A stretch of 64,000 bases of DNA from Escherichia coli. GTDB lineage: Bacteria > Pseudomonadota > Gammaproteobacteria > Enterobacterales > Enterobacteriaceae. The translations under genes and the position numbers were made by a program. The notes under the pieces were generated by a model. It was not told where the DNA came from and made no database searches. It worked only from the letters and a program-made list of their open reading frames with translations. The stretch lies in the NCBI RefSeq assembly GCF_003334385.1, contig NZ_QOWN01000014.1. One strand, given 5' to 3'. Shown here piece after piece: positions 47,720 to 48,315 of this stretch. Numbering within the stretch: position 1 is the first letter of the stretch; each line of letters opens with the position of its first letter.

Positions 47720-47860
47720 CAACACCAACCGGAACCTCCACCACGTGCTCGAATGAGGTGTGTTGACGTCGGGGGAAAACCTCCTGTGTACCAGCGGGAT
47801 AGAGAGAAAGACAAAGACCGGAAAACAAACTAAAGCGCCCTTGTGGCGCTTTAGTTTTGT
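47720..47860 (+). ncRNA. sraL: Probable SraL (RyjA) small RNA, convergent with and antisense to the soxR 3' end
   Basis: Locus between ghxP and soxR; plus-strand intrinsic terminator (AGCGCC-cttgt-GGCGCT then TTAGTTTTGTT) at 47834-47860; 5' end approximate, placed from the recalled ~140-nt size. Confidence 0.4.
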
Positions 47861-48315
47861 TCATCTTCCAGCAAGCGTGCGCCGGTACCTTCTTCTCCTA
47901 AGCGGTCGCCCGGGTTACGCAACGGGCAATCACTGCGCGAAAGGCAGCCACAACCAATACATCCGTCCAGTTCGTCACGCAGCGCCACTAAGGTATGAAT
48001 GCGCCGATCCAACTCTTCTCGCCATTGGGACGAAAGCTGTTTCCACTCTTTCGCACTTAACGTATGCCCTTCGGGCAACACGCCAAACGCTTCACCAATG
48101 GTCGCCAGCGGAATGCCAATACGCTGAGCAATTTTGATAATTGCAACATATCGCAACACATCACGTTTATATCGCCGCTGATTGCCGCTGTTACGGATAC
48201 TGGTAATCAACCCTTTACTTTCATAGAAATGCAGCGCCGATACCGCCACACCGCTGCGTTTCGCCACTTCGCCGGGGGTTAGCAGCGCTTTAATGCGGGG
48301 TAATTTCTTTTCCAT
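47851..48315 (-). CDS. soxR: Redox-sensitive MerR-family regulator SoxR
   Basis: 154-aa [39 protein letters not shown]… with [12 protein letters not shown] [2Fe-2S] motif. Confidence 0.96.

Follow-up and report, generated by a model that had tools for sequence, protein, structure and literature searches.

SraL, also known as RyjA, dates from 2001; the reference genome carries its annotation, and Rfam devotes a family to it. This sRNA of ~140 nt appears when E. coli and Salmonella enter stationary phase, with Northern detection reported in the two organisms, and it decays faster without Hfq. Its dependence on sigma-S and its stationary-phase expression are documented in Salmonella and E. coli (PMC3753932, PMC4014581, PMC4152358). 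In a Salmonella rpoS null mutant the SraL RNA is nearly lost along with the activity of a promoter-lacZ fusion, and RpoS ChIP enrichment at the sraL promoter exceeds 100-fold (PMC3753932); RNA-seq counted 38 reads in the ΔrpoS strain against 23180 in the wild type, i.e. ~600-fold fewer (PMC4014581). The promoter was described as carrying a -35 box characteristic of RpoS-regulated promoters and a conserved RpoS-type -10 element with an A/T-rich motif downstream (Silva 2013, PMC3753932).

Two targets of SraL have been described. In Salmonella, SraL represses tig by forming 7 + 3 bp with the 5′UTR at a site immediately 5′ of the Shine-Dalgarno (SD) sequence; compensatory mutations in vivo as well as gel shifts validated this pairing. 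SraL also pairs with the rho leader and thereby prevents premature Rho-dependent termination, for which Hfq and/or ProQ may be the mediators. One Salmonella RNA-seq study found no significant change of tig attributable to SraL, and deletion of sraL brought no fitness cost in stationary-phase competition (PMC4014581). Regulation of targets by SraL has been tested in Salmonella only, from which all the target work cited here comes. Here we compare these descriptions with the locus between ghxP and soxR in the window, a 64,000-nt stretch of the E. coli contig NZ_QOWN01000014.1 (assembly GCF_003334385.1).

Identity and promoter of sraL

The plus strand at 47718-47858 is the known E. coli sRNA SraL (RyjA), a correct but ordinary finding. 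An Rfam scan of the whole window matched this interval to RF01408 (sraL) with 146.2 bits (gathering score 39, E 8e-33) over the full length of the model (positions 1-142 of 142). A permissive Rfam scan of the intergenic region returned nothing besides sraL on the plus strand and a sub-threshold match of 23.7 bits on the minus strand, confined to the palindromic terminator; as the latter is the sole other match, the strand assignment is unambiguous. In the MG1655 record (NC_000913.3), the ncRNA ryjA (b4459) is annotated at 4277926-4278066 opposite soxR (4277469-4277933) with an 8-nt overlap, and ghxP lies on the far side of ryjA from soxR. The window runs as the reverse complement of that record. 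It shares with SraL/RyjA (RF01408, b4459) the locus, strand, length, terminator, promoter motif, neighbours and secondary structure, and differs from the K-12 copy by a single substitution, C62A, at 47779 (140/141 nt identical). Over 4.5 kb, 15 substitutions and one indel separate the window from MG1655, indicating a non-K-12 E. coli. The sraL region was found in 5421 of the 5426 complete E. coli genomes. The features of the locus are listed in Table 1.

The initial annotation had named SraL/RyjA as probable, on the plus strand between soxR and yjcD/ghxP, and had proposed a span of 47720-47862. The Rfam search that it had named bore out the identity and the strand, the same neighbours flank the gene in the window and in MG1655, and the span lies within 2-4 nt of both the Rfam match and the MG1655 annotation. 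Its view that a plus-strand transcript would be antisense to the soxR 3′ end agrees with the annotated ryjA, which covers the last 8 nt of soxR. The proposed identity, strand, neighbours and coordinates were thus all correct, which is a useful check on that annotation.

Table 1. Coordinates of features at the sraL locus (positions in the window)
Feature	Position	Strand	Remarks
ghxP (yjcD)	45956..47305	-	449-aa ORF, annotated ghxP; divergent upstream neighbour of sraL
-35-like element of sraL promoter, CTGGCGAA	47683..47690	+	conservation in 46 sequences
Extended -10 element, sigma-S type, TACAATTAA	47706..47714	+	ends 3 nt before annotated start
sraL/ryjA sRNA gene	47718..47858	+	141 nt; Rfam RF01408; 1 base off MG1655 ryjA (b4459)
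5′ block AACCGGAACCUCC	47727..47739	+	sRNA nt 10-22; upper case in Rfam consensus
Predicted tig 5′UTR pairing site, CACGUGCUCG	47742..47751	+	sRNA nt 25-34
Substitution C to A	47779	+	sRNA nt 62, in GGG/CCC hairpin; MG1655 has C
Terminator hairpin of sraL (+), most likely also of soxR 3′ end (-)	47827..47857	both	13-bp stem; core 47834-47850
soxR CDS	47851..48315	-	154-aa ORF, annotated soxR in E. coli genomes; last 8 nt overlap sraL 3′ end

The search for a sigma-S-type -10 element suggested in the initial annotation found one just 5′ of 47718, and this element is conserved in 45 related loci. TACAATTAA occupies -12 to -4 relative to 47718, and its motif TAnAnTTAA is nearly invariant across these loci: in the promoter alignment of the window plus the 45 loci (n = 46), T is found at -12 in 40 sequences, A at -11 in 46, A at -9 in 46, T at -7 in 46, T at -6 in 45, A at -5 in 46 and A at -4 in 39. 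In the -35-like element, G-33 and G-32 are invariant (46/46), as is A-29 (46/46), and T-34 is kept in 40/46. CTGGCGAA matches TTGACA poorly, and the sraL promoter went uncalled in a sigma-70 scan; because its -35 is weak, the missing call is not evidence against the promoter. The -10 element TACAATTAA fits the published description (Silva 2013, PMC3753932). From this motif and the literature, we infer that sraL in the window strain is sigma-S-dependent and would be transcribed rightwards from a sigma-S-type promoter with a start near 47718.

Upstream of the -35 region lies an A/T-rich block, CAAAAATATTGCGGTTAAAAA (consensus about GAAAAAATTTCGGCnAAAAA), at 47649-47669, corresponding to -69 to -49 of sraL. 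It is strongly conserved in the 45 related loci and may represent an UP-like element or the binding site of a regulator. On the other side of the intergenic region, sequences of the GCAAACGTT type are located upstream of ghxP at 47422-47433, 47465-47476 and 47564-47575, with a GCGAAACGTTATC variant near 47368. We take this cluster (47368-47575) to resemble PurR operators. The only two GCAAACGTT-type sites found in the whole window at ≤1 mismatch both fall in the 545-bp intergenic region upstream of ghxP, and the window-wide count at ≤2 mismatches is not above chance.

Elsewhere in the window, seven Rfam matches to naRNA4 (CssrE) are distributed over 44-320, 2796-2876, 29691-29874 and 40409-40480, three of them in tandem at the window start; by their sequence they look like REP/BIME-type repeat elements. 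An Rfam SECIS_2 selenocysteine insertion element is present at 27168-27222 (+) with 87.1 bits, presumably within the fdhF gene.

Homologues, secondary structure and the substitution at nucleotide 62

An exact-pattern scan of one genome per species yielded 47 loci. Two of them, from an Acidobacteriaceae (L005) and a Krumholzibacteriia (L012) genome, were excluded as chance matches at 44-45% identity, and the other 45 are genuine sraL homologues from Escherichia, Salmonella, Citrobacter, Enterobacter, Klebsiella, Raoultella, Leclercia, Lelliottia, Trabulsiella, Pseudocitrobacter and others. The 5′ block AACCGGAACCUCC was fixed in the search pattern, so that its invariance in the alignment is by construction. 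Two loci carry typical enterobacterial ghxP-sraL-soxR DNA under other labels: L037 is a MAG labelled Bacillota (contig JAEWQV010000038.1) with 8 differences from the window in 2891 positions, and L047 is labelled Chryseobacterium sp. 18061. Contamination of the assemblies probably accounts for both contigs.

The secondary structure was evaluated in an alignment of 41 distinct homologue sequences. The Rfam structure is kept in 96.4% of the cells, compared with 41-55% when the partners are slid by 1-3 columns, and none of 500 column shuffles reached the observed values. Of the eight pairs with compensatory changes, the 5′ long-range helix contributes four, the CCUGUG/CAGCGG hairpin three and the terminator one. 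All pairs of the RF01408 model form in the window SraL except G57-A62, which Rfam marks as non-standard. Folded on its own, the window allele has a minimum-energy structure that departs from the Rfam one (z -1.9), and the case for the Rfam structure rests on covariation; the minimum-energy fold of the K-12 allele recovers most of the helices.

The alignment also bears on a coding reading of the plus strand, on which an ATG-initiated ORF of 62 codons (47645-47833) overlaps the sraL interval and might encode a small protein. This ORF starts 73 nt upstream of the conserved transcription start, and the longest plus-strand ORF varies from 4 to 62 aa among the 46 aligned sequences. The homologous sRNAs are 139-148 nt long with length steps that are not multiples of three, and conservation tracks the base-paired helices and not codon positions. 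The lack of ORF conservation and the lengths of the homologues rule out the coding reading, to which we assign a negligible probability.

The difference from K-12 affects a base-paired nucleotide that is otherwise invariant, and this private change is one of two points that go beyond the textbook picture. The position equivalent to 47779 is occupied by C in all 45 related loci, including L037, which is otherwise identical to the window over the 255-nt aligned stretch. Among 5426 complete E. coli genomes, none matched a 41-mer with the window allele at its centre, as opposed to 5394 of the 5426 for the same 41-mer with the K-12 allele. The closest complete genome, N18-04097, differs from the window between 41000 and 54000 at two positions only, 47779 and 52419; the latter is inside uvrA, with A in the window and G in N18-04097. 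A sequencing error may account for C62A, or else a recent mutation that is neutral or mildly deleterious.

A62 breaks the third pair, a conserved G-C, of the GGG-GAAA-CCC hairpin and is the only broken cell of this helix. The conserved fold is computed to be 3.4 kcal/mol less stable with A62. The GGG/CCC hairpin is then predicted with a probability of 0.04 instead of 0.49, and the hairpin next to it with 0.49 instead of 0.85. Given this computed loss of fold stability and hairpin probability, the activity of the A62 copy might differ from that of the reference allele. The substitution is located outside the tig pairing site.

Predicted pairing with the tig and rho leaders

SraL was scanned against the tig and rho leaders in local windows. 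The top local duplex with the E. coli tig leader has a predicted energy of -16.4 kcal/mol and consists of 7 bp, a 1-nt bulge and 3 bp. On the tig side it covers -29 to -19 from the ATG (CGAGCAC-U-GUG), upstream of the SD, and it has the same 7 + 3 bp geometry as the validated Salmonella pairing. The local scan also gave predicted duplexes between SraL and the rho leader. When the full-length molecules were used in the calculation against the tig and rho leaders, the whole-molecule duplexes were no better than shuffles. The orthologous RNA of Salmonella Typhimurium has a sigma-S-type promoter and agrees with the window SraL in its tig-pairing segment, CACGUGCUC, and in its terminator.

By analogy with Salmonella, SraL of the window strain would accumulate in stationary phase and be stabilized by Hfq, possibly with the assistance of ProQ. 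Its nucleotides 25-34 would pair with the tig leader and lower the synthesis of trigger factor, and its pairing with the rho leader would prevent premature Rho-dependent termination. The expression pattern, the chaperone dependence and the regulation of tig and rho are expectations for this strain, carried over from the characterized ortholog. An sraL gene with a sigma-S-type promoter, a terminator common with soxR and Salmonella-like regulation of tig and rho is, taken jointly, very probably the best explanation of the locus.

The hairpin between sraL and soxR

Bidirectional intrinsic terminators between convergent genes present the same hairpin followed by a U-tract on either strand, and the hairpin at 47827-47857 has this anatomy. 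Its stem, AAACTAAAGCGCC / GGCGCTTTAGTTT, comprises 13 bp with 6 G-C pairs. On the plus strand it folds with -20.5 kcal/mol (z -7.4) and on the minus strand with -21.8 kcal/mol (z -5.7), and on either strand 0/200 shuffles are as good. The core was read in the initial annotation exactly as it stands, AGCGCC (47834-47839), cttgt (47840-47844) and GGCGCT (47845-47850); the stem is longer than was stated there, extending to the full 13 bp. The T-runs noted on both strands are present, TTTAGTTTTGTT after the hairpin on the plus strand and TTTAGTTTGTTTTCC on the minus strand. The soxR stop codon, said to sit directly against the hairpin, reads TTA on the plus strand at 47851-47853; it begins with the base that follows the core and is contained in the extended stem, on its 3′ side.

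The 13-bp stem followed by UUUAGUUUU constitutes a Rho-independent terminator at the SraL 3′ end, and the SraL transcript would end at this terminator with its U-tail. One compensatory change from U-A to G-C is found in the terminator of Pseudocitrobacter, and the loop is variable in length and sequence among the homologues. A terminator scan called the plus strand only, with a regional count of 2 against 1.9 in shuffles; because this count is no higher than in shuffles, the statistical weight of the hairpin comes from its energy and conservation.

An A-tract, a G+C-rich stem and a T-tract are arranged between convergent units, as in the sequence definition of a bidirectional terminator. The mirror-image hairpin on the minus strand, followed by UUUAGUUUGUUUU, most likely ends the soxR transcript too, a reading that the anatomy of the hairpin is compatible with. 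A search of the literature on bidirectional terminators turned up nothing specific to soxR or ryjA, and mapped soxR 3′ ends were not found in the papers searched. Unlike at the usual bidirectional terminators of convergent genes, one partner here is an sRNA, and its terminator extends over the stop codon of its partner gene.

The hairpin might serve as the intrinsic terminator of soxR only, with nothing functional transcribed from the plus strand. The slightly better fold on the minus strand (-21.8 vs -20.5 kcal/mol), followed by a U-rich tract, would suit this explanation, as would most E. coli PGAP annotations, which have no feature between soxR and ghxP. Yet the 110 nt 5′ of the hairpin are conserved in 45 loci with compensatory changes in two plus-strand helices, a conserved promoter motif is present at the right distance, and the covariance model scores 146 bits on the plus strand vs 24 on the minus strand. 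The curated MG1655 record annotates an ncRNA here, which has been reported as detected on Northern blots of both E. coli and Salmonella. A terminator of soxR and nothing else is almost certainly not the explanation.

The order of ghxP (leftward), sraL (rightward) and soxR (leftward) is conserved in the related loci. soxR is adjacent in 44/45, and one locus is without soxR. The distance from the sRNA 3′ end to the soxR stop codon is -1 to +8 nt in 30/45 loci and 7-511 nt in 14/45, the latter including the Salmonella representative, Enterobacter cloacae-group loci and Leclercia. In the representative of S. enterica subsp. diarizonae (L026), the soxR stop lies ~31 nt away from the end of the sRNA, and the coding overlap of the E. 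coli type is absent. The upstream neighbour of SraL in Salmonella was reported as STM4267, not ghxP. As for soxR itself, the regional match in E. coli AR Bank #0346 (NZ_CP066366.1, 4307721-4309528) is split in two over an IS1B transposase and a pair of soxR features, which suggests an IS1 insertion disrupting soxR.

These arrangements bear on whether SraL acts mainly in cis, modulating the termination or stability of soxR mRNA or being interfered with by soxR transcription, with the trans targets secondary. The two genes overlap by 8 nt and have one common hairpin, and ~40 nt of both RNAs would be fully complementary if the soxR mRNA ended past the hairpin; this complementary part, however, is taken up in each RNA by an intramolecular hairpin of very high stability. 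The tight juxtaposition is kept in the 30 loci mentioned above, but the sRNA is equally conserved in the 14 loci with a distant soxR stop, Salmonella included. The most conserved parts of SraL are outside the overlap, and its trans targets were validated by compensatory mutations. A mainly cis-acting SraL is very unlikely in our estimation, and regulation in trans remains the preferred reading.

A coupling of the two genes in cis is somewhat less improbable and still a doubtful proposition. The sraL and soxR transcripts would be complementary over ~40 nt, and polymerases converging on the hairpin would meet there; strong sigma-S-driven transcription of sraL in stationary phase could then determine the level, stability or 3′-end formation of soxR mRNA, or soxR could act on sraL in this manner. 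In the literature search, no paper reported an effect of sraL on soxR or tested cis coupling. The second point beyond the textbook picture is that most Enterobacteriaceae, though not all of them, keep the terminator common with soxR, and a cis interaction can thereby be put to the test. If true, cis coupling at the shared hairpin would connect the superoxide response with the general stress response.
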